64,000 bases of DNA from a virus. Lineage: Duplodnaviria > Heunggongvirae > Uroviricota > Caudoviricetes. Under the pieces are notes generated by a model that did no database searches, had not been told where the DNA came from, and saw only the letters and a program-made list of their open reading frames with translations. Of this stretch, positions 7,712-58,564 are shown one piece after another. Position 1 is the stretch's first letter. Each line of letters begins with the position of its first letter. Position numbers and translations under genes: made by a program. The stretch spans positions 48,524 to 112,523 of IMG/VR virus record IMGVR_UViG_3300009175_000009; one strand, 5' to 3'.

Positions 7712-7968
7712 AAGTTATCTTAGGATATTCCGATGACCGTACCGACAGCGTGAATCAGGACTCCCCGCCGCGGATCGGTGAAGGTGTCCAGATAGACGGT
7801 GATAAAAGAAACTACCTCGTGGCCGATGTCGTCCACGTATACAGCAGAGACCAATACGGGCAATTGCGGCATGTAACCGTTGTCGCTGAACTTAAGGAGA
7901 TACCCAATGGCGGAACGCCGCAAACTGACACGCAACACGCAGGAATCGTTGATACCGGCCAAGGCTGA
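7708..7968 (+). CDS. hypothetical protein (3' end overlaps clamp-loader start by ~60 nt)
   Basis: ORF with ATGA overlap upstream. Confidence 0.35.
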   Translation: MKVILGYSDDRTDSVNQDSPPRIGEGVQIDGDKRNYLVADVVHVYSRDQYGQLRHVTVVAELKEIPNGGTPQTDTQHAGIVDTGQG

Positions 7969-8929
7969 GAAGCCTGCACCATCGCCCGAAGCGGACTTTT
8001 GTAACATCTACCGTCCCGGCACGTTCGATGATATCCTCGGCCACGAGTCTATCAGTACCAGCGTCAAGGCAGTTCTGGATTCACGAAGCAAACGATGCTT
8101 CGTGTTCACCGGGCCGAGCGGCCTGGGCAAGACCACGTTCTCCCGCGCTATCAGGAATTATGTGTGCGGCGGCAACGACCTGCTCATGGACTACAAGGAG
8201 GTCGACGGCCCGGTCTACAGCAGTGCCGAGAAGGCCCGCGAACTGGTCGAGTGGATGCGGTACAAGCCCATGATCGCCGGCGGCAAGAAGCTGATCTGCG
8301 TGGACGAGGCACATGCTTTGTCGGGGCAGGCCTGGCAGTGCCTGCTGAAGTCAGCCGAGGAGCCGCCACCCTACGGGTACTGGATCTTCTGCACCACGGT
8401 CAGTGGCAAGGTGCCGGCCACCATCATGACCCGCGGAGCGAGCTACAATCTCGAACCGCTGGATGCCAAGACCCTGTTCGTCCTGCTGCAAATCGTGAAC
8501 GAAGAGCAGAAGCTGAACCTCGACGACGATATCCTTGATCTTATTGCCCACGAGTCGGACGGCAGTCCGCGTATGGCCTTAACGAATCTCGACAAGTGTC
8601 GAACTGCCGAGGATCGCCGCGAGGCAGCGGTGCTGTTGCAGGGTGCGTATGAGAACCCCGACCTGCGAGAGCTATGCCTTGCCATGAGCAAGGGCGGAAT
8701 CTCCTGGGAGAAGGCCATGAAGGTGCTAGGCGGCCTGAGCAACCTCGACCCCGAGGGCATCCGCATCCAGATCGTGCAGTACTTCGCGTCCATCGTCCGC
8801 AACGCCAAGAACCCAGCCGCGGCTGGTGCGGCCATCGAGGTGATGGACTGCTTCCTGCCGGGGCCGCTTTACTCTGCCAACAAACATGCCGAACTGTACG
8901 TCATGCTGGCCCGCGTACTGCTGAAATGA
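7907..8929 (+). CDS. clamp loader ATPase (DnaX / RFC small-subunit-like AAA+)
   Basis: IYRPGTFDDILGHE, Walker A GPSGLGKTT, DEAH, sensor KSAEEPPPYGYWIFCTT…TIMTRG; RBS AAGGAGA; N-terminus MAERRKLTRN carries the Arg tag. Confidence 0.8.
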   Translation: MAERRKLTRNTQESLIPAKAEKPAPSPEADFCNIYRPGTFDDILGHESISTSVKAVLDSRSKRCFVFTGPSGLGKTTFSRAIRNYVCGGNDLLMDYKEVDGPVYSSAEKARELVEWMRYKPMIAGGKKLICVDEAHALSGQAWQCLLKSAEEPPPYGYWIFCTTVSGKVPATIMTRGASYNLEPLDAKTLFVLLQIVNEEQKLNLDDDILDLIAHESDGSPRMALTNLDKCRTAEDRREAAVLLQGAYENPDLRELCLAMSKGGISWEKAMKVLGGLSNLDPEGIRIQIVQYFASIVRNAKNPAAAGAAIEVMDCFLPGPLYSANKHAELYVMLARVLLK

Positions 8930-9369
8930 TCAACAGCCTTACTGCTATCGAATGGACTCGCGTGCGGGCGTTCTGCCGGGACAAACGCCCGGATGAGATT
9001 ACACCAAACGCCTTGTACCGGGCGGCACGTGGTTTGAAGGCTGGTAGCCGGAACACGAACATGGTGACCGATAGCATCATGCTGGACGCTGTGCGTATGT
9101 GGTGCGTGAAGCCCGAACCTCCCAAGGAGAAACCTGTGCCGAAGCACTTATACATTACCGTGACTGGCCCCGCGATGTCGGGGAAGTCGACTGTCGTTGA
9201 GGTGATCGCTCAGGCTCTGGCTCGTGCTGGGTTGAAGTGCGATGTGAATTACGGGGATGACGGTCAGCCAACATCACCGTTGTCCCGACGCATTGATGCC
9301 ATGAAGATTGCCGCACCGAATATCACTATTAACCAACGGCAGACCCAGCGTGAGCCTTCCAAAGATTAA
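8926..9369 (+). CDS. small P-loop NTPase-like protein
   Basis: ITVTGPAMSGKSTVV Walker-A-like; ATGA overlap with clamp loader stop. Confidence 0.45.
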   Translation: MINSLTAIEWTRVRAFCRDKRPDEITPNALYRAARGLKAGSRNTNMVTDSIMLDAVRMWCVKPEPPKEKPVPKHLYITVTGPAMSGKSTVVEVIAQALARAGLKCDVNYGDDGQPTSPLSRRIDAMKIAAPNITINQRQTQREPSKD

Positions 9370-10207
9370 GACCGTCGTGCCTTGGTTCGGATCCGCGAGA
9401 ACGGTTGCCGAACGCATCGGTGAGCATCTGACCGGCTTCAAGTGGGTGGGTATACCGTTCTGCGGCGGATTGTCGGAGGTGCTGTACATCCAGGCCCGAT
9501 CCATCGTCTGCAATGATATGCACCGGCACATGATCAACCTCGCCCAGGTGCTGAAGGACGCGACGCTGGGACCGGCCATGATCGAAAGTCTGCGGGACGA
9601 ACTGTTCCATCCGGAGACGCTGGCACACGCTCAGGCTACCTCGGCTGACACGGACAATGATCAGTTGATTCCTATGGGTGCCCGCGCGCTGAACTACGAG
9701 GCTGCGAGGCAGTACTTCATCGCCTGTTGGATGGGCCGCAGTGGGAATGCTGGCGGCGACAGGGAGTTCACGGGCAACCTGTCGGTGCGGTGGAACGCGA
9801 ACGGTGGTGATTCTAATACGCGGTATCGCTCCGCCGTCGAGAGCCTGGCTGCGTGGCGGAAGGTCATCCAGCGATGTAACTTCACGTGTATGGACTGCTT
9901 CGAGTTTCTAGAGACCTGCGAGGATGATCCCGAGCACGCCATCTACTGCGACCCGCCGTGGCCCGAAGATGGTGATGTGTATAGGCACAAGTTCACGCGA
10001 GAACATCATACGCGGCTGGCCCAAATCCTGACGCGGTTCCAGAACGCACGCGTGGTGGTACGAATCAACACGTGTTCATTAGTGGATGAGTTGTACCCTC
10101 GTGGGTTGTGGAATTGGAATCAGCAAACGAGTCGCACGCAGGGCAACAATGATAAGGTAGAGGTGATTTTGGTTTATCGACCCCGAAGAAAAATTCAACG
10201 TGTCTAG
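9350..10207 (+). CDS. dam: DNA N6-adenine methyltransferase (Dam / D12 class)
   Basis: PWFGSAR…FCGGLS (motif I region) and YCDPPW (DPPY motif IV); start uncertain (TTG 9308 or GTG 9350). Confidence 0.7.
   Translation: MSLPKIKTVVPWFGSARTVAERIGEHLTGFKWVGIPFCGGLSEVLYIQARSIVCNDMHRHMINLAQVLKDATLGPAMIESLRDELFHPETLAHAQATSADTDNDQLIPMGARALNYEAARQYFIACWMGRSGNAGGDREFTGNLSVRWNANGGDSNTRYRSAVESLAAWRKVIQRCNFTCMDCFEFLETCEDDPEHAIYCDPPWPEDGDVYRHKFTREHHTRLAQILTRFQNARVVVRINTCSLVDELYPRGLWNWNQQTSRTQGNNDKVEVILVYRPRRKIQRV
10200..10207 (+). promoter_or_regulatory. GTGTCTAG + TGTAGGCAGAGGAG motif
   Basis: 22 nt upstream of ATG 10229. Confidence 0.45.
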
Positions 10208-10228
10208 TGTAGGCAGAGGAGAACGGTT

Positions 10229-10738
10229 ATGCCAACCAACGAACGAACGACAACGCGAAGCAACCTTCGCATCGACAAGCACGCCCTGGATCGCGAGGTC
10301 TGCGAGCAGCCGGAGAAATCACTGAATGCCGGCCAGGAAGCTGCGAGGCTCGCCTCGGTGCGTGATTTTGCGAAGGACAGAATGAAGGTGGTCGCAGCCG
10401 AACGTGCCCTTGCTATCCGCGAGGAACTGACCGCCGAGGGTGGACGTGTTACGGAGGCTCAGATCGATGCTCGTCTCACGACAGACTCCGAACGAATCGA
10501 TGCACATCACGAGTATATTCGAGCTGAACGTGACGCCGCGATGGCTGAGGCCGAACGTGATGCATGGAAAGAACGAGGCTACATGCTCAAGTCTCTCGGC
10601 GATCTGTACGCCGCAGGCTATTGGGCCAACGCAAGCCTCGCCGGTGACCGACGTGCCGCCGAAGAACGTGCAGGTGACGAGGCCCGCCAAGCCGTGGCGG
10701 ACCAGCGACGTCGCATGAACAGCACCTCGCGAGAATGA
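10229..10738 (+). CDS. hypothetical coiled-coil protein
   Basis: ORF preceded by GTGTCTAG motif plus GAGGAGAA RBS. Confidence 0.5.
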   Translation: MPTNERTTTRSNLRIDKHALDREVCEQPEKSLNAGQEAARLASVRDFAKDRMKVVAAERALAIREELTAEGGRVTEAQIDARLTTDSERIDAHHEYIRAERDAAMAEAERDAWKERGYMLKSLGDLYAAGYWANASLAGDRRAAEERAGDEARQAVADQRRRMNSTSRE

Positions 10739-10759
10739 TCGCGGAAGCCAACGGCAGAT

Positions 10760-10767
10760 GTGTTTAG
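10760..10767 (+). promoter_or_regulatory. GTGTTTAG + TGTAGGAG motif (variant)
   Basis: 77 nt upstream of SSB-like gene. Confidence 0.35.
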
Positions 10768-10843: not shown

Positions 10844-12166
10844 ATGCCTACAAGAGGCAACGACCGAAATCGCGGCGGTTTTCAATACCGCGAACGCTCA
10901 TCGGCCACCGTACAGCGGCGTGCCAACCAGAGCGGTGGTGCTTTCGACTCGCTGTTCCGCAGCGATGTTGACGTCGTCTCCATCAAGGAGGGCGACTGGC
11001 GGCTGCGTATCTGCCCGCCGTCGTGGAACGATCATCTGCTGGAAGAACTGGGGATCGTCCATCCCACACGTTCCGACGACTGGGATCCGGAAGGTGCCGA
11101 TGACTTTGGCCTGGAGGTCTATGTTCACTTCAGCGTGGGCGCGGACAATCAGAAGTACTTCTGCCTGAAGAAGATGAAGGGCGAAGCCTGCCCGGTGTGC
11201 GAAGAGCGTGAACGCGTCGCCGCACTGGGTGCTGCTGGGATGTCGATGGCGGATAAGGACTTCGACGATTACATCCGCAACCTTCAGCCGACAAAGCGGG
11301 TGATCGCATACGTGATCGACCGCGACGAACGCAACAGTGGCCCGCAGCTTTGGAACATGGCGTGGTCGATGGACCGCGACTTGAACAAGCTGAGCATGGA
11401 CAAGGAAACCCGCGAAGCCGTGTGCATCGATCATCCCGAGGAGGGATTCGACATCGAGTTTTCTGTGACCGGCACCGGCATCAAGACGAAGTACGGTGGC
11501 ATCGCCATTGCTCGCCGCAGCACGCCGCTGAGCGACAACCCTGACCGTCAGGACGACTGGTTGCGTACCATCGCCGAGAATCCGATTCCCGAGCTTCTCA
11601 CCTTCCACGACTATGAGCACATCAAGGCTGCTCTGGCCGGGCAACGCCGCAACCGCGACGAAGGTGGAGATGATCGCCGAGGCGGTGGAAATCGCGGTGA
11701 CGACCGCAGGCACGCCCGCGACGACGACGATGGTGATCGCGGCAGCCGTAGCCGAGCACGCGATATCGCCGACGACGATGACGACAACCGAGCCCGCCGA
11801 CCGGCGATCCGGGGACGCGACGCTGACGTTGATGATGATCCGCCGCCCGCACGTGGGCGAGGACGCGACCGCGACGACCACGACGATGACCCGCCACCGG
11901 CCCGTGCTGGCCGCAACGGGGGCCGCAGCCGAGAAGCCGACGCGGACGTCGATGACGACCGTGACCCGCCGCCAGCCCGCGACACGGGCCACGACGACGC
12001 CCCGCCAGCCCGCCGCCGCAGCAGCCGTGCTGCCGAGGAGGCTACTGACCCACCGGCCCGCGAGACCCGCAGCCGAAGCCGCGACGCCGATGCCGACGAC
12101 GCCCCGCCCGCACGCACGAGCTTGCGGGATCGCGTGGCCGAGGGACGCCGCCGCAGCGAAAGCTGA
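10844..12166 (+). CDS. putative Zn-containing ssDNA-binding protein (gp32-like) with long repetitive acidic/Arg C-terminal tail
   Basis: GDWRLRICPPSWND and CLKKMKGEACPVCEER resemble the gp32 N-terminal/zinc region; C-terminal ~170 aa of DDDPPPAR/RDRDD repeats. Confidence 0.45.
   Translation: MPTRGNDRNRGGFQYRERSSATVQRRANQSGGAFDSLFRSDVDVVSIKEGDWRLRICPPSWNDHLLEELGIVHPTRSDDWDPEGADDFGLEVYVHFSVGADNQKYFCLKKMKGEACPVCEERERVAALGAAGMSMADKDFDDYIRNLQPTKRVIAYVIDRDERNSGPQLWNMAWSMDRDLNKLSMDKETREAVCIDHPEEGFDIEFSVTGTGIKTKYGGIAIARRSTPLSDNPDRQDDWLRTIAENPIPELLTFHDYEHIKAALAGQRRNRDEGGDDRRGGGNRGDDRRHARDDDDGDRGSRSRARDIADDDDDNRARRPAIRGRDADVDDDPPPARGRGRDRDDHDDDPPPARAGRNGGRSREADADVDDDRDPPPARDTGHDDAPPARRRSSRAAEEATDPPARETRSRSRDADADDAPPARTSLRDRVAEGRRRSES
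11640..12130 (+). repeat. in-frame degenerate tandem coding repeats (DDDDPPPARGR…) in SSB-like tail
   Basis: repeated gatgatccgccgcccgcacg / gacgatgacccgccaccggcccgt-type units. Confidence 0.6.
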
Positions 12167-13010: not shown

Positions 13011-13169
13011 ATGAACTGGTTTTTAGACGTATGCGACGAGGCGGAGAAAGTTCACAAGATTTGGACTTTCCCGTTCATCATTTTGACCGCACCCGGAATG
13101 TTGTATGTCTTCTTCATAGGACTGTGCATACGGGGCATCAGGAAGGTTAGATCATGGCGAAGAAAATAG
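13011..13169 (+). CDS. small membrane peptide (52 aa, MNWFLDVCDEAEKVHKIWTFPFIILTAPGMLYVFFIGLC…)
   Basis: ATG 15 nt after the GTGTCTAG motif with GAGG RBS; below the track's size cut-off. Confidence 0.3.
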   Translation: MNWFLDVCDEAEKVHKIWTFPFIILTAPGMLYVFFIGLCIRGIRKVRSWRRK

Positions 13170-14347
13170 TTCGACGACGTCTCGTAACGGCAACGCCCCC
13201 ACCTCCGCAGCGTGAGGAAGAGGACGAAGACGTCGAGTCAACCGAAGATGAAACACCGGCCCGCGGGTCACGTGCAGCCCCACGTCGCACGGCTAAGGCT
13301 ACTCGCCGCAAGACCGCCCGCGATACCGATGACGAGCCGTTGGTACGCGACGGTGGGGCCTACGGGCTCACGGGCGACATGGAGGATATCCGTGTTAAAC
13401 GATTCGGTTCGGGCTGTACCCTTCTGGACTGCGAGATTGGTGGTGGTGGTGGCGGAGCGTTCCCTGAAGGCCGCGTGGTGAACTTCGCTGGCTGGCAGTC
13501 AACGAACAAGACAGGCGTATGCATCGAGGCGTGTGCCAACTTTTCCATCGCCTATCCGACCGGCATCACGCGATATAACGACGCCGAGGCCGCGTTCGAT
13601 GTGAATTATGCCCGCCGCATGGGACTGCCGATGGACAGAATCAGCTTCGTCGAGGAGTGCCGTATCGTCGAGGTGTTCTTTCAGGACGTGAAGGACTTCA
13701 TTGCCGAGTGTGAACGCCGTCGCGTGCCAGGCTTGTATATCATCGATAGCCTTGATGCCCTGAGCGATCAGGCCGAACTGGATGGCGGTATGGACAAGGC
13801 CAGTTACGGTATGGCGAAGGCCAAACGCATGTCACAGTTCTTCCGCACCCTGGCCGGCCCTTTGAACTCCGCCAAGGTGACCCTGATAGTCATCTCGCAG
13901 CTACGCGACAAGCTGAATGTATCGTTCGGCGAGAAGGCGACGCGTGCCGGCGGCAAAGCCCTGGACTTCTACGCTTCGTGGGTGGTGTGGCTGTCGCATA
14001 TTGGCCAGATCAAACGCTCGGTCAACGGCATCGAACGCGTGGTCGGTGTTCGCATCAAGGCCAAGTGCAAGAAGAACAAGTGTGGCCCGCCGTTCCGCGA
14101 GTGCGAGTTCCCCGTGATCTTTGACTACGGCATCGATGACATCGAATCGATGGCAGACTGGTTAGTTGAGGTGAAGAAGTGGGAACTGTTCGATGAACGA
14201 AAACCTGGAACGTACCTGAAGTGGCTGGACAAACAGCCGCGTGAAATGTACATTAGCGAATCCAAGCGTATGTCCGCAGTGGTGCGGGCCGAGTGGGACA
14301 AGATCGAGGAGTCATTCTCGCCGAACTTCTCGAAGTACGGTAGCTAA
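13154..14347 (+). CDS. RecA/UvsX/RadA-family recombinase with degenerate Walker A
   Basis: RecA-core layout: GWQSTNKTGV (Walker-A-like), YIIDSLDAL (Walker B), loop regions GGKALDFYAS; N-terminus MAKKIVRRRLVT Arg tag. Confidence 0.7.
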   Translation: MAKKIVRRRLVTATPPPPQREEEDEDVESTEDETPARGSRAAPRRTAKATRRKTARDTDDEPLVRDGGAYGLTGDMEDIRVKRFGSGCTLLDCEIGGGGGGAFPEGRVVNFAGWQSTNKTGVCIEACANFSIAYPTGITRYNDAEAAFDVNYARRMGLPMDRISFVEECRIVEVFFQDVKDFIAECERRRVPGLYIIDSLDALSDQAELDGGMDKASYGMAKAKRMSQFFRTLAGPLNSAKVTLIVISQLRDKLNVSFGEKATRAGGKALDFYASWVVWLSHIGQIKRSVNGIERVVGVRIKAKCKKNKCGPPFRECEFPVIFDYGIDDIESMADWLVEVKKWELFDERKPGTYLKWLDKQPREMYISESKRMSAVVRAEWDKIEESFSPNFSKYGS

Positions 14348-19176: not shown

Positions 19177-19790
19177 CCGAACGCCGCCGCATTAAAACTA
19201 CCGACTGGCGTGAGGTGATCACTCCCGAACGCAGACTGATCATGGGTATCGATCCCGGCATGAACGGTGGCTTGGCTGTCACCGAGACCGGACCCAACGC
19301 GATCATGTTGGTCAAGCGGATGCCCGAAGGGAACGACGAACTGTGGGCTTGGCTGCGGCAGCATATCGCGGATCCAAGCAACGTCAGCGTCTACATCGAG
19401 GCCGTGCATGCCTATGCGATGGGCGTGGCTGGGGCATTCAAGTTTGGCGTAGGTTACGGGCGACTTCTGGCGTTCATGACAGCTCTGGATATCATCCCGG
19501 TTAAGGTGCAGCCCGCCACTTGGCAGCGGGCCATGAACATCCCGACGACCCGCAAGCCAGTGCCCGTGGACTTCCGCAAGCAGGACGGCAGCACACGGAC
19601 GACCAAGGCGGTCAAAGCACTGCTCCAGGCTGAACACAAAGAGGATATCCGCAAGCGGGCTCAGGAACTGATGCCCGATCTGGACGTGTGGCAGAAGACG
19701 AAGAAGGAGCAAATGGCGGTATGCGACGCCCTGCTGATCACATACTATGGCGTGGTGACGAATGGCGGAATCAATTCAGCCGCGATGTGA
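19173..19790 (+). CDS. ruvC: RuvC-family Holliday junction resolvase
   Basis: IMGIDPGMNGGLAV (RuvC motif ILGIDPG) and C-terminal DALLITYYG (DAADALAIA); 20-aa N-terminal extension MTERRRIKTT carries the Arg tag. Confidence 0.65.
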   Translation: MTERRRIKTTDWREVITPERRLIMGIDPGMNGGLAVTETGPNAIMLVKRMPEGNDELWAWLRQHIADPSNVSVYIEAVHAYAMGVAGAFKFGVGYGRLLAFMTALDIIPVKVQPATWQRAMNIPTTRKPVPVDFRKQDGSTRTTKAVKALLQAEHKEDIRKRAQELMPDLDVWQKTKKEQMAVCDALLITYYGVVTNGGINSAAM

Positions 19791-19937: not shown

Positions 19938-21008
19938 ATGAACTTACTGATAGCCAGCGACCTGCACGAGACCGATAACCTGCGAGACGCCTATCGATTG
20001 AGAATCTTTGAGTGGCTGGCGGGTGAGGCGACGCGGCGGCACGTGAACTATATCATAATCCTTGGGGATTTGACGGAATCCAAGGATCGACACTCTTCGG
20101 CCCTGGCGAACGCTATTGCCGATGGGCTGAAACTCCTCGACGACGCCGCTCCGACTATCGTTCTGATGGGCAACCACGATTACGTGAACCCCGACGTGCC
20201 CTACTTCCGTTGGCTGCGGCATACGGGCGTGGAGTTCTTTCTGGAGCCTACCAAGCGCACCCTCGGCGAGTCCAAGTGCCTGTTCCTGCCTCACACGCGG
20301 GCTGTGCGGCAGTACGCCGAAGGCTACAGGATGTCCGACTTCGACTACATATTCGCCCACCAGACATTCCACGGGGCCAGTATCGGCGGCGGGAAGCGTT
20401 TAGATGGCCTGCCGACTTCGACGTTCTCGGGTACGCGGGCGAGGGTATACTGCGGGGACGTTCATGTTCCGCAGCGGCTGGCGAACATCGAGTATGTCGG
20501 GGCACCGTACCACGTTGACTTCGGCGATGAATACATACCGCGGGTGATCTTCGACAGTGGTCGGGACTACGAGGATATCAACCCGCCGTTCCCGGCCAAG
20601 CGGAAGCTGGTCATCGATGGCACCGACCGGCTTACCGATATGCGGGTGAACCCCGGCGACATGATCAAGATCGAGGTGCGGCTGAAGCGGGCCGAGTTTG
20701 ACACCTGGAACGAGTGCCGCCGGCGGGTGCAGGAGTTTGCCGAACGCCAAAGGGCCGTGCTGTGCGGGTGCAGGCTCGTGGAACGCGATGTTCACCACAT
20801 GAGCCCGATGGACTTGGCCGCCCGGCGTCTGCCGCCCGGTGACCTGTTCAATCACTACTGCGCCAGCAACGCCGACCAGATCAGCGACGACCTGAAGGCA
20901 GCGGGCAAGGCGTGCTTGGCCGGCCCGCAGTTTCCACGGGCCAACCCGGAGGAAACCGTAGGCCGGCAATTGACGCGGCGACGTCTAGAATCATCTGTGT
21001 CTGAATGA
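19938..21008 (+). CDS. sbcD: SbcD/Mre11-family nuclease (calcineurin-like phosphoesterase)
   Basis: phosphoesterase motifs ASDLHETD, ILGDLTE, GNHDY. Confidence 0.8.
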   Translation: MNLLIASDLHETDNLRDAYRLRIFEWLAGEATRRHVNYIIILGDLTESKDRHSSALANAIADGLKLLDDAAPTIVLMGNHDYVNPDVPYFRWLRHTGVEFFLEPTKRTLGESKCLFLPHTRAVRQYAEGYRMSDFDYIFAHQTFHGASIGGGKRLDGLPTSTFSGTRARVYCGDVHVPQRLANIEYVGAPYHVDFGDEYIPRVIFDSGRDYEDINPPFPAKRKLVIDGTDRLTDMRVNPGDMIKIEVRLKRAEFDTWNECRRRVQEFAERQRAVLCGCRLVERDVHHMSPMDLAARRLPPGDLFNHYCASNADQISDDLKAAGKACLAGPQFPRANPEETVGRQLTRRRLESSVSE

Positions 21009-37040: not shown

Positions 37041-37598
37041 ATGCCGAGTCACTATATAATATGCCCGCAACGGAACGGTGACATAACCGAAGCCCGTATG
37101 CTAGTGCAGAACTACGGTTTGGTGGTTGGTGAATACGACGTATTCATGCCAACAGCCAATTATGTAGGTGACTGCGTGTATCTGAGCGTGTTGCCATCGA
37201 GTGAAGCCTACCAGAAGATGCGGGAGTGGATCGACCGCCGGCGGCACACGAACAGGCCAGAGTCGGCAATCGCCGCAGCCTGCCCGTCGAACCAGCGTGC
37301 CTGGGTGCTGTACTATCCGCCCGGCAGATCTTATCAGGGTGGCAGGGAAGTCGAAAACTGTGAATTATCGGTTCAAATACTACAGGCCCTGGAAAGCTGC
37401 GACCGCTGGCCGGTGGGTGTAGCCCTTCCTGCCTCCGAGCCTGGTGAAATAGGATGGCGGCTGGAGAGCGTAGGTCCGCCTGTGATTCCGCAGTGGATCG
37501 AAACCAACGGTGGCCAGTTATGGACGCCAGCGATGGAAGACGCACCCAGGCCGGTGCGGCGACGTATTCAAACATTACCCGATAGTGGTGAAATCTAA
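37041..37598 (+). CDS. hypothetical protein; paralog of the 40015 gene; C-terminal …VRRRIQTLPDSGEI tag
   Basis: shared blocks GLVVGEYDV / WVLYYPPG…SVQILQAL with the 40015 product. Confidence 0.5.
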   Translation: MPSHYIICPQRNGDITEARMLVQNYGLVVGEYDVFMPTANYVGDCVYLSVLPSSEAYQKMREWIDRRRHTNRPESAIAAACPSNQRAWVLYYPPGRSYQGGREVENCELSVQILQALESCDRWPVGVALPASEPGEIGWRLESVGPPVIPQWIETNGGQLWTPAMEDAPRPVRRRIQTLPDSGEI

Positions 37599-40014: not shown

Positions 40015-40998
40015 ATGCCACAGCAGAACCCAAACAATCCTGAACCGATGAACGGGCCGCGGTACGCAGTGCATCCCGGCTACGTCACCAGCATGTCTGA
40101 CGGCGACCGCCATTTCATCGACGCCATGCACCTTGTGTCCCTCTACGGCCTGCGAACCGGAGAATACATCGTTATTCAGGAAGGGCTGCCGTTTGGTCAG
40201 CAGATTAGTGATACTGACAGTATTATTCATCTCTACCCGCAGCGGAACCGTGAGGACTACGGTCATGCGGCCAACATCATCGAAGCCCGTCGACGTGGAT
40301 CCCGACTGGATATTCCGCCTATGTATGGAGCCCGGCCACCCGAGCGGCGACAGCATCGCTTGGGGCCAACACCGCCACCACCGACGCCCGAGGCCATAGC
40401 CGCTGTTACCACCGACGCCGCACGGCGGGCTAATGAGTCGCTGGGAATACCGGGCAGCTTGCTGACGCAGGACAGTAACTATTCGAGCGCACACGCTGAC
40501 GCGATGTCATTCAGCAACCTTTTCGGTCGTGGTGACGTACCGCGAGCGGAGTTTATACGCCGACTGGAAGCAGCAGTTGAGCAGCAACATCAGCCCTATA
40601 TTACAGAAGCCGATCTGCGACGACTGCGATCCCACAGCCAGGTGACGCCCGCCGAGCCGAACGTCCAGCGGCTTCCCGTGGGCTACACGCTGCCGCGAAC
40701 GTTCGTTAATGCTGAACAACGTATTATTGCCCACGTCGAGGCAAATACCGACCGCGTGATATGGGTGCTGACATACCCGCCCGGTGAGTCTCGCCAGGGC
40801 AGCCGAGTTGTCAGCAACAGCCAACTGGCTATCACGATACTTGCCGGCCTGATGGACAGAGAAACCGAGCATGGCATCGTCCTGCCGGTCGGCTGGACGT
40901 TGAACCGTCTTGGTCCGGAACCAGTCAAACGAAGAAAGATTACACGCGGCAAGCGAACCGTCGTGCGACGAAGGATTCAGTCCACGGGAGAACTGTAA
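40015..40998 (+). CDS. hypothetical protein; paralog of 37041; C-terminal …VVRRRIQSTGEL tag
   Basis: shared blocks with the 37041 product. Confidence 0.5.
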   Translation: MPQQNPNNPEPMNGPRYAVHPGYVTSMSDGDRHFIDAMHLVSLYGLRTGEYIVIQEGLPFGQQISDTDSIIHLYPQRNREDYGHAANIIEARRRGSRLDIPPMYGARPPERRQHRLGPTPPPPTPEAIAAVTTDAARRANESLGIPGSLLTQDSNYSSAHADAMSFSNLFGRGDVPRAEFIRRLEAAVEQQHQPYITEADLRRLRSHSQVTPAEPNVQRLPVGYTLPRTFVNAEQRIIAHVEANTDRVIWVLTYPPGESRQGSRVVSNSQLAITILAGLMDRETEHGIVLPVGWTLNRLGPEPVKRRKITRGKRTVVRRRIQSTGEL

Positions 40999-44830: not shown

Positions 44831-45376
44831 ATGCTAGAACGACGACGAATTCAAACAAGTCCTGAAGAAATTAGGAAGGCTAGAAAGAGGTACACAAATC
44901 GCCAGTGTTACCTACGGAATCGTGAATCTATAAATATGCGTAGTGCAAAAAGATGGGCAGAACTTTGGAAGAATGATCCAGACAAGGCAAGGGCGATAAT
45001 TGGCAAGAGTCAACGCAAGCATCGAGATCGTCGTCACGTAGATGTTTCCATAGCGTTAGAGTGTATGATGCGAAACGCACGTGCTCGTAGTGCCAGACGT
45101 AACCTGGATTGCAACATATCGCTAGAATACCTGCGTCAGGTTTATGATTTACAGGGCGGTGTTTGTGCTATAACGGCTATGCCGTTTGAGCAAACTACTG
45201 ACTACGGAAAGATGTCGTTAGATCGTATTGATCCATCGTGTGGTTACGTTCAGGGTAACATTAGAATTGTTTGGTTACTAGTGAATAACGCTATGGGTGT
45301 CTGGGGTGAGGGGCCTTTACTTCGAGTTGCAGAGGCGATTGTGGAACGGAATTTAGTAAGGAATCAACCTAAATGA
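44831..45376 (+). CDS. putative freestanding (homing) endonuclease-like protein; N-terminal MLERRRIQT tag
   Basis: AAGGAG RBS; C-terminal SLDRIDPSCGYVQGNIRIVW resembles phage HNH/AP2-type endonuclease DNA-binding modules; lies between truncated and intact copies of one gene. Confidence 0.4.
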   Translation: MLERRRIQTSPEEIRKARKRYTNRQCYLRNRESINMRSAKRWAELWKNDPDKARAIIGKSQRKHRDRRHVDVSIALECMMRNARARSARRNLDCNISLEYLRQVYDLQGGVCAITAMPFEQTTDYGKMSLDRIDPSCGYVQGNIRIVWLLVNNAMGVWGEGPLLRVAEAIVERNLVRNQPK

Positions 45377-46222: not shown

Positions 46223-46545
46223 ATAAGTCTGGGCCGCCGGTGGTCATGGTTCGGGACAAGTTCGGCCAGTACACGAGGTCCGAGACCGGCGAGGCTCCCG
46301 GCCATTTGCCGTGGGGCGAGGAAGACGCCGGTTTGCCCGCCTGGGACAAGCCCCTGGCCGATGTATCGGCCTTAACTACCCGAACGCCAGCCCAGGCCCC
46401 GTCACGACCCGCTGTGACGCCGCCTGTGGCCGCACGTGAGCCCGTCGCCCGCAGGTCGATAGAACGGCTGGCCAGTGACTTTGACCGCCTGTGGGGCCAA
46501 ACAGCGGCCCCTGCCACCCCAACGCGAAGGAGGATCCAAACATGA
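46171..46545 (+). CDS. hypothetical Pro/Ala-rich protein ending …PTRRRIQT*
   Basis: ORF; start uncertain, overlaps the 46007 ORF. Confidence 0.35.
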   Translation: MHDIDQATAEIIFHGLINKSGPPVVMVRDKFGQYTRSETGEAPGHLPWGEEDAGLPAWDKPLADVSALTTRTPAQAPSRPAVTPPVAAREPVARRSIERLASDFDRLWGQTAAPATPTRRRIQT

Positions 46546-47406: not shown

Positions 47407-47834
47407 AGTGTCCTCACTGTCAAAAAGAAATCGACGTGCGAGAAATGGCCCATATCGAAAACTACCCCAACACAGTCTCGGCACGCATCATTCATTGCGG
47501 GCGACAGGTGTTCATGATCGACGGCAAGCAGGGCCTGTGGTCTCGGATGCCGCCGGACAAGAATAATCCCGGCGAGGCAGTGATGGCCATGATGAACGTA
47601 GGCAAGGGAGGTAAGGCACACAAGTTCTTTCCTTTGCCAAAACTCGATGCCCTACTGCGGCCCGCCCTGGCCGTCAGCAACCGTCAGGGTGAGCTTGCTG
47701 CGGCTATCGATGAATCTATTGCCGCCTTGAGACGCGACCTGCCTGCTCCGGTGCTGCTGCATGGTGAGAACTGTGCCTGCGGCAGCCATGTTTGCTACGC
47801 GATCCGAACACTAACGAAGGTGATGAAGCGATGA
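47403..47834 (+). CDS. hypothetical protein
   Basis: ORF. Confidence 0.45.
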   Translation: MKCPHCQKEIDVREMAHIENYPNTVSARIIHCGRQVFMIDGKQGLWSRMPPDKNNPGEAVMAMMNVGKGGKAHKFFPLPKLDALLRPALAVSNRQGELAAAIDESIAALRRDLPAPVLLHGENCACGSHVCYAIRTLTKVMKR

Positions 47835-48037
47835 CCCGACGCTACATACAAACCTGGCAGCCGATCACGGACACTTCGCCGCCGATGGATGTAGCCGTCG
47901 AGACCAAAATCAGCGACCACGAGGGCGAACGGAACATCCAGCGGATGCGGCGTGGTGGCTCGAACGGGCGACTGTGGTTCATGGATGGTGGCATGTACGT
48001 TTACTATCAACCGACGCACTGGAGGCATCAACTATGA
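47831..48037 (+). CDS. hypothetical small protein (MTRRYIQT…)
   Basis: ATGA overlap. Confidence 0.35.
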   Translation: MTRRYIQTWQPITDTSPPMDVAVETKISDHEGERNIQRMRRGGSNGRLWFMDGGMYVYYQPTHWRHQL

Positions 48038-48793: not shown

Positions 48794-49295
48794 AGTCGAA
48801 CACGCCGTGCGGAACATGCGGGCCTGGGGAAAAATGATCTGGATGCGGCAGATGCGTGTCGGGTCAGGCTTCGGCGACGACGGCGAGCGCACGATGGACT
48901 TATGGGGAATAGAATCCGACCGTCGCTGCCGGCGGGTATCCATCGAGATCAAAGTATCACGCCCCGATTTTCGCAGCGACGTTAAGAATCGCATGAAGCA
49001 ACGCCGGGCCAGGATGCTGTGCAACGAGTTTTACTACGCAACGCCTGGTGGCCTGCTGACGCACGATGATATCCCACAGTGGGCTGGGCTCATCGAGATC
49101 ATGCCGATCACAACTCGTGGCCAGAGATGGTGGGGAGCCCCTGGTGCTACGGTGTTTGGTAAGGTAACCGTAAGTGCGCCCTGGTTCGATTCCTCGGCCC
49201 CGACGTGGAGATTTGTTGCCAGCCTGGCACGCCGCATCGCCGCCGAGGAGAAGGTGATCGAACGACGCAAAATACAAACCCAAGGAGAATCATAA
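48780..49295 (+). CDS. hypothetical protein, possible PD-(D/E)xK nuclease fold; C-terminal …ERRKIQTQGES tag
   Basis: D…VSIEIKVS (D-x-EIK-like) block. Confidence 0.4.
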   Translation: MTADEVEHAVRNMRAWGKMIWMRQMRVGSGFGDDGERTMDLWGIESDRRCRRVSIEIKVSRPDFRSDVKNRMKQRRARMLCNEFYYATPGGLLTHDDIPQWAGLIEIMPITTRGQRWWGAPGATVFGKVTVSAPWFDSSAPTWRFVASLARRIAAEEKVIERRKIQTQGES

Positions 49296-50833: not shown

Positions 50834-50836
50834 GCC

Positions 50837-50844: not shown

Positions 50845-50850
50845 TTAGGC

Positions 50851-51207
50851 ATGAACCAAGGCGACACCGACTTTCTGCATAATCTACTAACCCGCCTCGT
50901 CGCGGCCAACGATGCCTATCGTAAGTCAGAGTATCGTGGCCAGATCATGCGGTTCTCCGAGGACTTCGTGCGTGGCCGCGAGGTTATGTCCGACGAAGAC
51001 GTCAAGAACCGCATTAAGCAGATACTGGAAGACAGGCAGGCGGCCTTCATGAGTCGCCGCATGCCCGACGTTGAGACTGCCACAAACGCTATGATCGCCC
51101 TGGTACGGGAACTGACGAGGCCAGTCATAGTACGCCGCCGCATGCAGACACCGCCGCCCGAACCACCTGCACCGCCGCCATCATCGCGGCCTGGCTGGGA
51201 GCTTTGA
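50851..51207 (+). CDS. hypothetical protein; C-terminal …VRRRMQTPPP… tag
   Basis: ATG immediately after GTGTCTGGTTAGGC (leaderless-like). Confidence 0.4.
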   Translation: MNQGDTDFLHNLLTRLVAANDAYRKSEYRGQIMRFSEDFVRGREVMSDEDVKNRIKQILEDRQAAFMSRRMPDVETATNAMIALVRELTRPVIVRRRMQTPPPEPPAPPPSSRPGWEL

Positions 51208-51392: not shown

Positions 51393-51583
51393 TGTTCGAC
51401 ATCGACCGCTATCTTGAAAGTCTATCGCCAGCGGCCCGCGAAGCCGTGCAGCGGTACATCAATACGCCGCCTGAACAGCAGCATTTATCCTCGGTGCTAA
51501 CGGTAAATCTGACGTTGGCCTTAGCTTACGAGAAGGAGAAACGCGATGCCCGAACGACGCCGGATGCAAACTATTACTCGTGA
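51389..51583 (+). CDS. hypothetical small protein
   Basis: ORF. Confidence 0.35.
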   Translation: MMFDIDRYLESLSPAAREAVQRYINTPPEQQHLSSVLTVNLTLALAYEKEKRDARTTPDANYYS

Positions 51584-55664: not shown

Positions 55665-56512
55665 CGGGTATGCTCGTGATCACGAAGGCGGGCAAGGTGA
55701 TGATGAAGGTCATCGCCGACAGCCTGGGCCACAACGTCAATGCCCTGGTTATGTACATCAGGCCGCTTCTGGTCGGTGGACGCGTGCCGTCAGTCTACGA
55801 TGTCGAGCTACGATGTGCCTGGTCCAACTTTGGCGGGCCGCGAAACTTGGTGATCATAACCGAGACTGAGATCTGTTTCTCCGATGGTCGTGATGCTCTC
55901 GTGAATGAGAACTACCCAAACCCACGTTATCGCAATACGTTTGCTGACCCACGATTTAACCCGCGGTGTGATCGTGGCACTGTAGAAAACCTCATCGTTA
56001 TCGAGATCAATGACGTTCGGCAGCGTCCGGAGCGACTCCGAATCACGAGAACAGTCGAACGACGCAAAATGACGTCATGCTTCACCAGACGGCGGTCGGA
56101 TTCATATAGCCAGATACTGTCGTGCGTGCTGCTGGAGGAACTGCGGCCACTGGGCGAAGCACACGCCATGATGCTGATGTCCGACCGTATGGAGCCGTCT
56201 GGCGTGCGGATCAAGGTGCGTGATACTGGAGTCATCGTGGAGAACATTCGTGCGGGCCGCGAGTCGCCCAGCACGGTCCGACGCAGCTTATCCCTGGGCA
56301 CGGTCATGCTGGTTGGCCGCAACGGAAACAACAACACTAACGTGTGGGACATCGTAATGATCGGCCTGCGACCGCCCGAGGATTGCATCGAGCTACGCCT
56401 GGCTGAATACTATGGCTGGACAGTAGACCAAGTTCGCAGCATGACTGGCCACCAACGCCGACAGTTTCTGGACTTCATCGACAATCCCGTGGGTGAAGGT
56501 GGTGAACTATGA
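55661..56512 (+). CDS. hypothetical protein
   Basis: ORF, 283 aa. Confidence 0.45.
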   Translation: MTGMLVITKAGKVMMKVIADSLGHNVNALVMYIRPLLVGGRVPSVYDVELRCAWSNFGGPRNLVIITETEICFSDGRDALVNENYPNPRYRNTFADPRFNPRCDRGTVENLIVIEINDVRQRPERLRITRTVERRKMTSCFTRRRSDSYSQILSCVLLEELRPLGEAHAMMLMSDRMEPSGVRIKVRDTGVIVENIRAGRESPSTVRRSLSLGTVMLVGRNGNNNTNVWDIVMIGLRPPEDCIELRLAEYYGWTVDQVRSMTGHQRRQFLDFIDNPVGEGGEL

Positions 56513-56555: not shown

Positions 56556-57020
56556 ATGACCATGCCTGAACGACGCAGGATGAGAACCGCCCCGAAGATG
56601 GCCGGGCCTGATCAGATATGCCGACATTTTCGCGGCATGTTAGAGGATCGTCCGTGTGCTATGGACATCGATATCAGGCGACTGATAGGCGGGGTTGACA
56701 TCGGCTGGGCACTGCGTGCACCGTGCCGGAAACTGAGCGACGCATCGGACTCAAACCGCGTGCCGTGTGATCATTTCGCTATGTTCACGCGGGCCGAGGG
56801 CCGAGCCAGGAACATCGAACTAATCCGTATTCTCGAACGTCATGCTATGGCCGCCGATACCGTGGATGCCTTCAGGAGCCGCCACAAACGCCAGAACGCT
56901 CAGGAGACCGTAGATTGCCCGACTGGCTGCGGCGGGCGGCTGACGCTATCGATAGCGGCTATCAACGGGCATTGCTGGGGACGATGTAGCACGCCGGGGT
57001 GTCTGGCATGGATGGAGTAA
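56556..57020 (+). CDS. hypothetical Cys-rich protein; N-terminal MTMPERRRMRT tag
   Basis: ORF. Confidence 0.45.
   Translation: MTMPERRRMRTAPKMAGPDQICRHFRGMLEDRPCAMDIDIRRLIGGVDIGWALRAPCRKLSDASDSNRVPCDHFAMFTRAEGRARNIELIRILERHAMAADTVDAFRSRHKRQNAQETVDCPTGCGGRLTLSIAAINGHCWGRCSTPGCLAWME
56999..57006 (+). promoter_or_regulatory. GTGTCTGG + CATGGATGGAG motif
   Basis: 18 nt before ATG 57025. Confidence 0.4.
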
Positions 57021-57024
57021 AATC

Positions 57025-57777
57025 ATGACGCAAGACGAACGACGAACGCTGGACAGACTGCTGGGGAATTACAACCAAGCCCGACGCAACCATGCGTCGT
57101 CTGAGGAGTATCATGAACTGGTCAACTTCGTCGCCCGCATCACCCAGCATCGCGATGCTCTGAAGGAAGCGGGCGAAGCTGTGATCAGACATTCAAGTCC
57201 TGATCCGTCGTCACCATCGGGATGGAGCAGTTGTATGATCAACTCTTTGCATTGTCTACGGTGGGCTGTGCAGAGCGCAACGCCGCGGCCTGAGCCGCCC
57301 GAACTGCGAGACCCGCCGCAGGGCCGCACCCTGATGGACGTGTTCGCTGGTACGGGCCTGGATACGGCACTGAATGGTGCGTTTGAAGCGATGGAGCCGT
57401 TCCGCGACGCGATGGATCGGCACCGCTATACAGCGGCCCCAATGCATGATTCGGTGGTCGCGGTCATTCCAAGCGTCCACAACGGCGGTAGTATTGAAGA
57501 CGCCCTCGATCTTCGCTACGTCGTACCAACTGGGCCGACGTGTGAGCCGCGCAACCCCAATACGCCGCGAGCCCGAGATATCACCGAGGAGATGCGTGAG
57601 TTAGAACAGCGAGTGATGCGTGCGATGCAGATACCGCCCGCCGTTTTTGCCAGCATTCGGCAAATCGACCAAGAGCCGTGCATTCCCAATCTGCGTGACC
57701 CGCCTGGTGCGACTGCTCCGCAGTTACGCCCGAAGCGACGACGCATCCAGAATCTGCCCAACGGTGGTGAACTGTGA
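57025..57777 (+). CDS. hypothetical protein; C-terminal …KRRRIQNLPNGGEL tag
   Basis: GTGTCTGG…GGAG upstream. Confidence 0.5.
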   Translation: MTQDERRTLDRLLGNYNQARRNHASSEEYHELVNFVARITQHRDALKEAGEAVIRHSSPDPSSPSGWSSCMINSLHCLRWAVQSATPRPEPPELRDPPQGRTLMDVFAGTGLDTALNGAFEAMEPFRDAMDRHRYTAAPMHDSVVAVIPSVHNGGSIEDALDLRYVVPTGPTCEPRNPNTPRARDITEEMRELEQRVMRAMQIPPAVFASIRQIDQEPCIPNLRDPPGATAPQLRPKRRRIQNLPNGGEL

Positions 57778-58016
57778 CCGTTATGTGGTTCGTTTTTATC
57801 GCCGCCGCGTTCATCAACCTGGCATGTGCGTGGCAGTTGATCAAAGCGTGCAAACAACTGCGACGCGTAATCGGTTACCATCTGCGAATGATCAGGAACA
57901 TTTGTGCTATGCAGATCGCAAGCGAACTGCGGGATGCCGAAAGCGTGGAACACTTTCATAGGCAGTACCGCGACGTGGCGTTAGAGTATGATCTTTGGAT
58001 GAAAGATCTGAAATAA
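57774..58016 (+). CDS. small membrane protein
   Basis: TM VMWFVFIAAAFINLACAW. Confidence 0.4.
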   Translation: MTVMWFVFIAAAFINLACAWQLIKACKQLRRVIGYHLRMIRNICAMQIASELRDAESVEHFHRQYRDVALEYDLWMKDLK

Positions 58017-58165
58017 CCGCTAACTTGTATTGACGCAGTCCGGTCCCGATGTAAGATCGATGGTTATGGATGCTGCGTTTTTATCTGTGGGTTGCCTGGC
58101 TGCCGCACGCGGTAGCGATCTACGGCGACCGGAACGCAGCCGGTAATTCAACTGGTAGGACGATA

Positions 58166-58564
58166 ATGAGTATCAATCGAAGGCGTATCACTTCCGACCC
58201 GAATACGAAGCAGGATCCGCCGGCGTTGCCCACCGAAGCAGCAACGTCGACATCATCGGGCAGGGATCCGGTGTCGGGCAAGTTTCTCAGAGGTAATCGG
58301 TGCAGTGGCGGCAATCCGTATGTGCGCGAGCAGAACCGCATCCAGGCGGCTATCCGAGCCCAGATGACGGATGAAGTTCTGGAGGGCTTCGTGGCCGACT
58401 GGATCCGTCATGCCCGCAGTGGCAAGAGCATGTACCTGCTCAGCCTCATGGAACGCATGTGCGGCAGGGTTGCCGACTTTGCTACCGAGGAGCGAGTCCG
58501 CGATCTGGAGGCCGAACTGGAACGCCTGGTTGCGGCCCGCAACGAGGCTCAGGACGGTTTCTGA
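58166..58564 (+). CDS. hypothetical protein (N-terminal MSINRRRITSDP)
   Basis: ATG 58166 after GGTAGGA. Confidence 0.4.
   Translation: MSINRRRITSDPNTKQDPPALPTEAATSTSSGRDPVSGKFLRGNRCSGGNPYVREQNRIQAAIRAQMTDEVLEGFVADWIRHARSGKSMYLLSLMERMCGRVADFATEERVRDLEAELERLVAARNEAQDGF

Follow-up and report, generated by a model that had tools for sequence, protein, structure and literature searches.

A recurrent arginine-rich terminal peptide on proteins of an uncultivated tailed phage: a candidate docking tag for DNA-transaction enzymes

A short arginine-rich peptide, here called the tag, recurs at the termini of otherwise unrelated proteins encoded on a 64,000-nucleotide stretch of DNA from a tailed phage (Caudoviricetes; IMG/VR record IMGVR_UViG_3300009175_000009, positions 48,524 to 112,523), which we refer to as the window and in whose numbering positions are given unless another sequence is named. 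The window is an early/middle region of the genome of this uncultivated phage. Nearly all of its genes lie on the + strand, are tightly packed and have Shine-Dalgarno (SD) sequences, at a G+C content of about 0.58. They encode an orotidine monophosphate (OMP) decarboxylase/phosphoribosyltransferase fusion, a beta-clamp-like processivity factor, a family A DNA polymerase (PolA) with a UDG-like domain, a clamp loader, two Dam-like methyltransferases, a gp32-type single-stranded DNA-binding protein (SSB), RecA, a RuvC-like resolvase, Mre11/Rad50, the nuclease FEN, a sigma-region-4 protein and several HNH endonucleases. Exact protein matches led to a 192.5-kb ENA metagenome contig (ERZ27245846 k141_83342) that wraps around the window, and the phage genome is therefore about 190 kb in size and circularly permuted; altogether, ~90 kb of the ~192.5-kb genome were read.

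The motif census covered 118 + strand proteins of the window (19,660 residues), about 19 of which (~16%) carry the tag. The consensus derived from 20 copies is x-R-R-[RK]-[IML]-[Qx]-[TS], with a single hydrophobic position and no aromatic residues; in its fuller form it reads [E/V/T]-R-R-[R/K]-[I/M/L]-[Q/x]-[T/S], and Pro usually comes next. The pattern RR[RK][ILM]x[TSN] was matched 18 times, compared with 0.49 on average and never more than 4 in residue-shuffled proteomes (2000 shuffles), and 17 of the 18 matches are terminal, that is, no more than 15 residues from the N-terminus or no more than 30 from the C-terminus, where 29% would be expected (binomial P = 9.4e-9). The strict form RRR[IM]Q[TSN] was found eight times, all eight terminal, against 0.005 expected. 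The objection that the motif might be just as frequent inside proteins or in shuffled controls, raised as a possible refutation in an earlier inspection of the DNA by a model without database searches (the sequence-only reading), thus fails. Six-frame translation of the window yielded eight copies of RRR[IM]Q, each of them terminal in its protein and in frame with the + strand gene; on the - strand the string is absent. With a weight matrix, 20 terminal sites score above the first internal site, a result that is circular for the training sites and yet shows the gap. The individual copies are listed here by the position of the tag itself.

7913..7933, + strand: N-terminal tag ERRKLTR of the clamp loader (gene 7907-8929; Pfam DNA_pol3_delta2/AAA)
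10181..10204, + strand: weak C-terminal copy PRRKIQRV, directly before the stop, of a Dam-like methyltransferase (gene 9308-10207)
10703..10723, + strand: C-terminal tag QRRRMNS (protein end QRRRMNSTSRE) of 10229-10738, the gene directly upstream of that for SSB
13169..13189, + strand: N-terminal tag VRRRLVT of the RecA-like protein (gene 13154-14347; Pfam RecA, 7.7e-40)
19179..19199, + strand: N-terminal tag ERRRIKT of the RuvC-like resolvase (gene 19173-19790; PHROG Holliday junction resolvase)
20973..20993, + strand: C-terminal tag TRRRLES (protein end TRRRLESSVSE) of the Mre11/SbcD-like nuclease (gene 19938-21008; Pfam Metallophos)
28416..28463, + strand: two N-terminal copies, ERRNIET and TRRRIIS (MERRNIETVPTRRRIISS), of a Dam-like methyltransferase (gene 28413-29627; Pfam MethyltransfD12, motif scans)
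30930..30950, + strand: weak C-terminal copy SRRRIGA of FEN (gene 30105-30968; Pfam 5_3_exonuc), an uncertain member
30961..31011, + strand: N-terminal tandem copies ERRRIQT-PPV-VRRRMNT of 30955-31884, kept in orthologs
37554..37574, + strand: C-terminal tag VRRRIQT of 37041-37598, a paralog of 40015
40927..40983, + strand: two C-terminal copies, KRRKITR and VRRRIQS, of 40015-40998 (motif scans)
44837..44857, + strand: N-terminal tag ERRRIQT of an EndoVII/HNH-type endonuclease (gene 44831-45376; PHROG endonuclease, endonuclease VII and HNH)
46522..46542, + strand: C-terminal tag TRRRIQT of 46150-46545, directly before the stop; the codons AGG AGG serve at the same time as SD for the gene that follows
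47834..47854, + strand: N-terminal variant TRRYIQT of a 68-residue open reading frame (ORF; 47831-48037), the weakest gene call among the carriers
49260..49280, + strand: C-terminal tag ERRKIQT of 48780-49295 (PHROG 5429 'DNA repair protein', 4.9e-24)
51130..51150, + strand: tag VRRRMQT of 50830-51207, 18 residues before the stop, with a Pro-rich tail next
51552..51572, + strand: N-terminal tag ERRRMQT of a Cys-rich protein (gene 51546-52169; PHROG 2693, without assigned function)
56030..56077, + strand: internal tandem pair ERLRITR-TV-ERRKMTS of 55661-56512, the only non-terminal case
56568..56588, + strand: N-terminal tag ERRRMRT of a Cys-rich protein (gene 56556-57020; a PHROG 31210 match backs the + strand gene)
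57733..57753, + strand: C-terminal tag KRRRIQN of 57025-57777
58175..58195, + strand: N-terminal tag NRRRITS of 58166-58564, for which the ENA contig independently called the same start

All 16 carriers that had been named from the sequence alone exist at the places given for them, with differences only in two start codons (46150 instead of 46171 and 50830 instead of 50851), and the paralogy claimed for 37041 and 40015 was borne out (35% identity). Carriers that go beyond that list are 28413, 10229, 19938 and, weakly, 9308, plus the internal pair in 55661. For the N-terminal carriers, SD sequences 6-9 nt ahead of the start codons support these calls, as exemplified by the clamp loader, where AAGGAG stands 7 nt upstream of ATG 7907. 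FEN had been named as a weak carrier, and here the picture is divided: the copy is present and identical in the related sequence L031, but it overlaps the SD of gene 30955.

The same peptide is used at either end of a protein, as had been proposed, half of the tags being C-terminal. Its distance from the terminus varies (1-12 residues at N-termini, 0-25 at C-termini), tandem copies are spaced 9-13 residues apart, and the tags lead into Pro-rich or polar sequence; in the RecA-like protein, PPPP is followed by an acidic stretch. For the RuvC-like protein, the AlphaFold2 (AF2) model has a predicted local distance difference test score (pLDDT) below 50 at residues 1-16 and a confident RNase-H-like fold that begins near residue 21. 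The Ile/Met, Gln and Thr/Ser positions are conserved as well as the arginines, lysine is rare, the final position is Thr or Ser in 17 of 20 copies, and Glu precedes the tag in seven of the ten N-terminal carriers. Natural examples are the peptides MPERRRIQTPPVV and PRPVRRRIQTLPDS. Just past the window, a 167-residue protein (L060, 17373-17876) contains TSSRRRIIREQPQYTPPP near its N-terminus, which may be a further tag outside the replication region judging by its sequence; its gene stands among large unannotated genes (1250, 249, 355 and 512 residues; PHROG matches none).

The sequence-only reading had stated that the arginine codons vary freely between copies. All six of them are indeed used (CGA, CGC, CGT, CGG, AGA, AGG), but the choice is biased: the first tag arginine is CGA in 13 of 20 copies (the share of this codon is ~16-23% in the rest of the genome), the Glu ahead of it is GAA in seven of seven cases and likewise in orthologs, and CAA and ACA are also favoured. 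Since A-ending codons are likewise preferred in the first and last ten codons of untagged genes, most of this bias represents the usual low-structure constraint near starts; the CGA excess, which this preference covers only in part, may reflect common descent of the tags. In orthologous tags the residues are kept across synonymous arginine changes, switches between CGN and AGA included. Within the 30955 family, the triplets read CGT-AGA-CGC, CGA-CGC-AGA and CGA-CGT-CGC, so that synonymous differences between orthologs affect all three codons. When the tags were turned into a nucleotide weight matrix, no out-of-frame, other-strand or non-coding sites scored above the level of weak tags. Selection acts on the peptide and is purifying, which agrees with the earlier claim that the conservation lies on the peptide and not on the DNA.

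Two apparent elements of the tag were rejected. An RRKV that would have made a carrier of the polymerase is the polymerase's own SD (AGGAGGAAAGTA), the real start being ATG 3991. The '(L)PxGGE[LI]' extension that had been described behind C-terminal copies is mostly the ribosome-binding site of the next gene: in six of eight cases, the trailing GE[LIS] endings contain an SD-like GGAGAA or GGTGAA 5-10 nt upstream of the abutting start, and such endings are also found on untagged genes, e.g., 81-278 and 6663-7379.

Orthologs at 41-83% identity retain the tag, while the neighbouring linkers diverge. RuvC orthologs (61-83% identity) all begin with M[TSP]ERRRI[KI][TL]T, and the linker behind it has a 9-residue indel. 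In Mre11 orthologs, [TQ]RRRL[EDG][ST].VS is kept at the extreme C-terminus (LQRRRLGTVSG in the relative L065, IQRRRLDSTVSG in L067), while the preceding 20 residues cannot be aligned. The clamp loader tag is kept as M[AV]ERRKL.R[ND] (MAERRKLTRD in L063, MVERRKLERN in L065), and 10229 orthologs keep QRRR[MVL].[ST] at their ends (QQRRRVSTTRSE in L065, TQRRRLNSSQRP in L063; KKRRRISG in L064). The 30955 orthologs at 41% and 53% identity keep two and three copies, respectively. Retention is only partial for the RecA tag in L065 (MAKKIVRRRPIAA). Tags have been both gained and lost: a 132-residue protein of L067 ends in ARRRITS, and its L065 counterpart, paired by N-terminal similarity alone, has no tag.

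Further away the tag fades. In L064, whose SSB is 43% identical, only degenerate forms occur (KKRRRISG at a protein end, an internal SRAKIQTG, and AKRRIQVS near the C-terminus of RuvC). No tags were found in relatives with a RecA 40-46% identical (27 IMG/VR loci) or an SSB 38% identical, and 150 cluster representatives of the RuvC family at no more than 40% identity start at the catalytic IGIDPG and lack the tag extension. The expectation that relatives keep the tag on orthologs therefore holds at 41-83% identity and not for homologs at 40% or less. Judged from these alignments and the AF2 model of the RuvC-like protein, the tag is a clade-specific module added on a disordered extension. The pattern MPERRR[IM]QT gave no match in IMG/VR, and the relaxed form M-x-ERRR[IM][QK]T gave just two unrelated single matches there. 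Elsewhere, the former pattern had 27 matches in metagenome contigs and 18 in GTDB genomes, which we judged to be chance. Three of these matches, from Pirellula, go back to one conserved non-coding stretch that reads ESSRIQT, as MGN also admits AGC. This common, apparently non-coding stretch, GATGCCMGAAAGCAGMCGTATTCAAACTT..CGGTCGCAACC, is shared by contigs of Pirellula metagenome-assembled genomes (L070 7147-7172, L071 495-520 and L076 3720-3745) and perhaps represents a conserved small RNA or a regulatory element.

Wherever a function can be assigned to a carrier, that function is exerted on DNA (9 of 9: clamp loader, RecA, RuvC, Mre11, FEN, two methyltransferases, the EndoVII/HNH nuclease and the 'DNA repair protein'), which upholds the proposed enrichment of the tag on replication and recombination proteins. 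The tag is present on 9 of 18 annotated nucleic-acid-acting proteins versus none of eight annotated metabolic, membrane or other proteins (Fisher one-sided P ~0.016). Ten carriers, several of them Cys-rich, have no assignable function, and PDB sequence searches with four carriers of this kind returned nothing informative. Untagged are PolA, the clamp, SSB, Rad50, the sigma-like protein 29563 and the HNH genes 15580, 16145 (- strand) and 18060. Complexes have one tagged member each: Mre11 is tagged and Rad50 is not, the clamp loader is tagged and the clamp is not.

Some carriers invite comment of their own. The product of 10229-10738 is possibly a mediator, and that of 48780-49295 is a candidate PD-(D/E)xK nuclease on the basis of a D...E.K pattern read by eye. 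The protein of 30955-31884 belongs, together with P0002 and P0003, to the most heavily tagged family (two to three tags) and contains a conserved stretch, TETGR[VTI]SS[AG]RPN[VT]SNV[PS]RS, that resembles the family A polymerase motif TGRLSSxxPNLQNIP; Pfam, PHROG and PDB searches with this protein gave no match. Upstream of the endonuclease gene 44831, a 43-residue ORF (44447-44578) is 65% identical to the N-terminus of the downstream gene 45373-45738, and this flanking partial duplicate suggests a mobile insertion, as far as sequence can tell. Tagged endonucleases also occur in relatives: a GIY-YIG endonuclease of L032 begins with MERRRIRT, and an HNH endonuclease inserted in RuvC of L065 ends with RRKIQTV.

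The last case lies in an 81-kb relative (L065, 10001-11559), where the HNH gene (10602-11180) directly follows the RuvC gene and is itself followed by an ORF (11146-11559; P0121) that duplicates the C-terminal two-thirds of RuvC and is 88% identical to RuvC of the window. To judge by its sequence, the arrangement resembles what the insertion of a homing endonuclease with duplication of its target would leave, or else a split gene. The same relative encodes a C5 DNA methyltransferase (PF00145; 7952-9820) with a low-complexity insert of ~390 residues rich in Gly, Arg, Pro and Ala that holds the internal tag-like strings TRRLITS, RRRRITS and GRRRIQS; an intron, an intein-like element or an assembly error might explain this insert.

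Two proteins of the window come into consideration as a common partner of the carriers.

10844..12166, + strand: gp32-type SSB, leading candidate receptor (Pfam gp32, AF2, Foldseek)
2414..3487, + strand: beta-clamp-like processivity factor, alternative candidate receptor (PHROG 947, 1.6e-18; weak Pfam DNA_pol3_beta_2)

The sequence-only reading had taken them for an SSB-like protein and a clamp, and both assignments hold. The AF2 model of SSB has a confident core (residues 1-266), which Foldseek matched to the RB69/T4 gp32 core with probability 1.00, and pLDDT below 50 at residues 269-422. The description of its tail as extremely poly-acidic had to be abandoned: the 172 residues comprise 49 Asp and Glu and 41 Arg and Lys, for a net charge of -8, and with its six D(D)(D/A)PP(P)AR units the tail is a D/R polyampholyte. 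The C-terminus, SLRDRVAEGRRRSES, is basic, and AF2 places a helix at residues 427-439 (pLDDT ~70-77). Among 108 aligned family members (P0005-P0114) this basic tip is conserved, with R435 in 89 and R437 in 94. The family tails consist of repeats of the type acidic block, PP(P)AR, basic block, and their terminal basic helix has the consensus DRLRRMRRRD, unlike T4 gp32 and E. coli SSB. The long D/E/R tail and the basic tip occur throughout the family, untagged relatives included. A resemblance of the VQRRANQSGG in the N-domain of SSB to the tag (RRANQS versus RRRIQT) is weak, with a weight-matrix score of 4.3, and serves as a lead. PolA (3991-6630), a family A enzyme in which an N-terminal UDG-superfamily domain is fused to 3'-5' exonuclease and polymerase domains, ends throughout the clade in a hydrophobic/acidic tail of the form [FY]S[SD][DN][DE][WFA] (GTWYSDEA, GVFYSDEITTS, GTYSSNEWFS and GDFSSDDWFT), by its sequence a candidate clamp-binding tail of the classical type.

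The motif is thus real, terminal, located in disordered regions, under selection as a peptide and clade-specific, and among annotated proteins it is confined to those that act on DNA. Our tentative interpretation, favoured but held at somewhat less than even odds, is that the tag is a portable docking motif that tethers DNA-transaction proteins to one phage partner, most likely the gp32-type SSB; we infer both the docking role itself and the identity of the receptor. The use of either end, the variable distance from it, the disordered, Pro-flanked tails and the tandem copies argue for a linear motif that is bound in a groove rather than for a signal that is read at a free terminus. The strict conservation of Ile/Met, Gln and Thr, together with the Glu ahead of most N-terminal copies, argues for a specific receptor rather than for generic charge. 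Placed on disordered N- or C-terminal extensions, the tag would bring its carriers to a shared partner at replicating or recombining phage DNA, where the basic, Ser/Thr-ended peptide would dock on an acidic site of DNA-bound SSB. This site could be located on the SSB core, as for the 'LAST' peptide of T4 gp32, or be formed by acidic blocks of the repetitive tail. Tandem tags would add avidity along an SSB filament, and their spacing of 9-13 residues could span adjacent SSB protomers or adjacent acidic blocks of the tail.

By analogy, the tagged set appears to match the classical gp32 and SSB interactomes, which comprise UvsX/RecA, a mediator, RNase H/FEN and the clamp loader. As in the known hubs formed by the SSB tip or the gp32 C-terminal domain, an abundant ssDNA-binding protein with a long disordered tail would organize enzymes via an electrostatic peptide contact; the polarity, however, would be reversed, as known SSBs bear the acidic peptide and their partners the basic pocket, whereas here the basic peptide is on the partners. 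The acidic tip that is typical of E. coli SSB (SSB-Ct), T4 gp32 and T7 gp2.5 is not found: the tip of the phage SSB is basic (RRRSES at the end) and its tail carries mixed charge. In T4, the gp32 C-terminal domain contacts other replication, recombination and repair proteins, and the N-terminal LAST peptide, KRKST, docks on an acidic region of the adjacent gp32 core (PMC12893549). The tag resembles LAST, (Lys/Arg)3(Ser/Thr)2 (PMC12893549), in having three basic residues and ending in Ser/Thr, and LAST docks on an acidic region of a gp32-type core; LAST differs in being part of gp32 itself and serving cooperativity between SSB molecules, while the tag is carried by ~19 other proteins and has Ile/Met-Gln before Thr. 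In the N-domain of the phage SSB itself, VQRRANQSGG resembles LAST no more than loosely.

Several observations weigh against SSB docking. Tail and tip of SSB do not co-vary with the tag, occurring in untagged relatives too, and the nearly charge-balanced tail (net -8) itself contains tag-like basic blocks (PPARRRSSR; RRRISR and RRRMCR in the family members P0005 and P0006), which is why our confidence in this partner is modest. SSB could be a fellow carrier instead of the receptor. The classical partners of SSB do not include methyltransferases or homing endonucleases. The DNA-acting PolA, the sigma-like 29563 and the HNH genes 15580, 16145 (- strand) and 18060 lack the tag, and action on DNA is established for only about half of the carriers, ten of them being without assignable function.

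An alternative that we consider unlikely, while giving it serious weight, is that the tag binds nucleic acid directly, as an arm lying in the DNA groove in the manner of an AT-hook or homeodomain arm, such that no protein receptor is necessary and the local concentration of the enzyme on DNA would rise. The exclusively DNA-acting nature of the annotated carriers and the acquisition of the tag by selfish endonucleases are in line with this idea, the tandem spacing of 9-13 residues corresponds to about one helical turn if the peptide is extended, and the dispensability of a clade-specific receptor fits the missing co-variation with SSB or clamp. Yet non-specific DNA-binding tails are usually variable and K/R-rich, while in the tag Ile/Met, Gln and Thr/Ser are as well conserved as the arginines and lysine is rare, and a Glu before the N-terminal copies (7 of 10 carriers) is unexpected beside an arm that contacts DNA. 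Nor is any known hook matched: the tag has three basic residues with Pro next, no Gly-Arg-Pro and hence no RGRP core, and it does not reach the six to eight or more helical arginines of an arginine-rich motif.

We regard it as rather improbable that the tag is a linear address label for a selective phage DNA compartment or an SSB-driven condensate, in a phage without signs of nucleus formation. The outcome would be analogous to that of the phage nucleus: any gene whose product needs access to DNA, selfish endonucleases included, would have to bear the tag or enter together with a tagged protein. Homing endonucleases of three kinds are tagged and metabolic enzymes are untagged, one tagged subunit per complex is compatible with piggy-back entry, and the 172-residue polyampholyte tail of SSB would be the kind of sequence that drives coacervation. 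There are precedents in the cargo peptides of encapsulins and microcompartments, nuclear localization signals and the twin-arginine translocation (Tat) system, where the same short peptide at either terminus routes unrelated proteins and may occur in tandem; the tags themselves do not conform to a Tat signal, which is N-terminal only and combines [ST]RRxFLK with a hydrophobic h-region, since they lack an h-region and half of them are C-terminal. An address label is difficult to reconcile with the lack of a tag on PolA, SSB, the sigma-like factor and three HNH endonucleases. Moreover, no shell, tubulin or importer gene was recognized in the ~90 kb read, and chimallin shell, PicA/Imp importers and split RNA polymerases did not turn up among the annotated proteins, no search having been aimed at any of these; the replication module (PolA, beta-like clamp, clamp loader, gp32-like SSB) bears no signs of nucleus formation either, the hallmark genes not having been searched for. 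In nucleus-forming phages, a linear import signal is reported to be absent and import uses surface patches (PMC11087766).

Docking on the beta-like clamp 2414, as a sliding-clamp-binding motif, appears quite improbable to us, and in this respect the clamp-binding proposal of the sequence-only reading is weakened. Clamp and clamp loader are encoded nearby, and a short portable motif on the disordered tails of many unrelated DNA proteins is just what characterizes the PCNA-interacting peptide (PIP) box and the bacterial and T4 clamp-binding motifs, with closely similar clients: the clamp loader, FEN, methyltransferase, resolvase, Mre11 and nucleases parallel the PCNA interactome. The tag, in contrast, is Arg-rich and has one hydrophobic residue, without the features of Qxx[LIM]xx[FY][FY], QL[SD]LF or the T4-type hydrophobic/acidic motifs. 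The replicative polymerase, the one obligatory clamp client, is untagged and has its own, different clade-wide tail, and tandem copies 9-13 residues apart cannot reach two distant pockets of a ring. Because the polymerase has its own hydrophobic/acidic tail and the tag lacks clamp-motif features, we consider the clamp less likely as a hub than SSB.

Very unlikely, in our judgement, is a regulatory handle that switches off early DNA enzymes, whether as a degron that ClpXP, Lon or a phage adaptor recognizes or as the target site of a basophilic kinase (R-x-R-x-x-S/T). Some copies sit exactly at the C-terminus (RRRIQT, RRKIQRV and RRKIQTV), reminiscent of the C-terminal RRKKAI of MuA, which is a degron, ClpX signals are known at both termini, and Thr or Ser occupies the last position in 17 of 20 copies. 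The copies occur, however, at both ends, at distances of 1-12 residues (N-terminus) and 0-25 residues (C-terminus), and once internally; unlike ssrA-like signals, MuA RRKKAI or N-degrons, the tag is therefore not read as a free terminus. A degron would hardly account for the tandem copies or for the acquisition of the tag by selfish endonucleases, no kinase was recognized among the annotated proteins, which cover part of the window, and some strong copies (57025, 30105) have Asn or Ala in place of Thr. Neither the virion-packaging signal nor the free-terminus degron, both also put forward earlier, agrees well with the set of carriers or with the variation in distance from the terminus.

We give hardly any credence to the idea, already largely refuted, that the tag is a by-product of a DNA/RNA junction signal (ribosome-binding site, promoter or mobile mini-element) with the sequence GAACGACGNCGNATHCAAACA: all copies lie within ~75 nt of a gene start, some arginine codons double as SD (AGGAGG in 46150), the false RRKV before PolA is pure SD and the tag codons are biased (CGA 13/20, GAA 7/7), but the copies always stand in the coding frame, comparable matches are lacking in other frames, on the other strand and in intergenic DNA, the A-ending bias is common to the ends of untagged genes, and the use of six arginine codons, their synonymous exchange in orthologs with the residues kept, and the nucleotide weight-matrix scan all but rule out a DNA repeat or junction signal.

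Outside the world of phages, the eukaryotic hub LC8 (dynein light chain) binds a disordered motif of 7-8 residues, often multivalently, with the core [KR]-x-[TIV]-Q-T; its likeness to the tag is limited to the I-Q-T core and is a lead, and no LC8 homolog was noticed in the phage, none having been looked for.

As for the wider genomic setting, close relatives of the phage were found solely in a few ENA lake-type assemblies, and 24 kb of the window had no megablast match among GenBank phages. Scans of the window for tRNA and Rfam families were empty, and a PHROG scan of the region downstream of the window gave no matches. Auxiliary metabolic genes (952-2298 and 60906-62148 in the window; 724-3312 and 7668-7865 in L062) include the OMP decarboxylase-phosphoribosyltransferase fusion, AdoMet (S-adenosylmethionine) decarboxylase and spermidine/spermine synthase, and also amidoligase and glutamine amidotransferase genes and a CsrA homolog. 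An island of low G+C content (15580-18600; 0.51 vs 0.58) harbours HNH endonuclease genes, none of them tagged, and within it lies the sole convincing - strand gene of the window (16145-16618). A SPFH/Band-7 protein of 475 residues with a hydrophobic N-terminus is encoded at 41913-43340.

Neither the tag peptide strings nor phage-wide terminal tags of this type were found in the literature searched, and recruitment by hub and tag, as first proposed in the sequence-only reading, is still the best reading of a motif whose form we found nowhere described there. A docking motif that DNA enzymes share on their tails is in itself a familiar concept: cells organize their DNA replication and repair by means of the PIP box, clamp-binding motifs and the SSB tip. 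What appears to be new is the sequence of the tag, a probable reversal of polarity, its breadth (~16% of the window proteins) and its acquisition by homing endonucleases. If the tag binds one hub, the ~20 clients listed here, half of them without assigned function, offer a functional way into phage 'dark matter', any cargo could be brought to the sites of phage replication by a peptide of seven residues, and the phage would provide a natural case either of a hub contact whose polarity is reversed or of a linear localization signal. If instead the tag should prove to be an address label, intracellular phage organelles or condensates would have gained their first simple signal sequence. The selfish endonucleases have apparently copied the tag, which would show mobile genes adapting to the internal logistics of their host virus.

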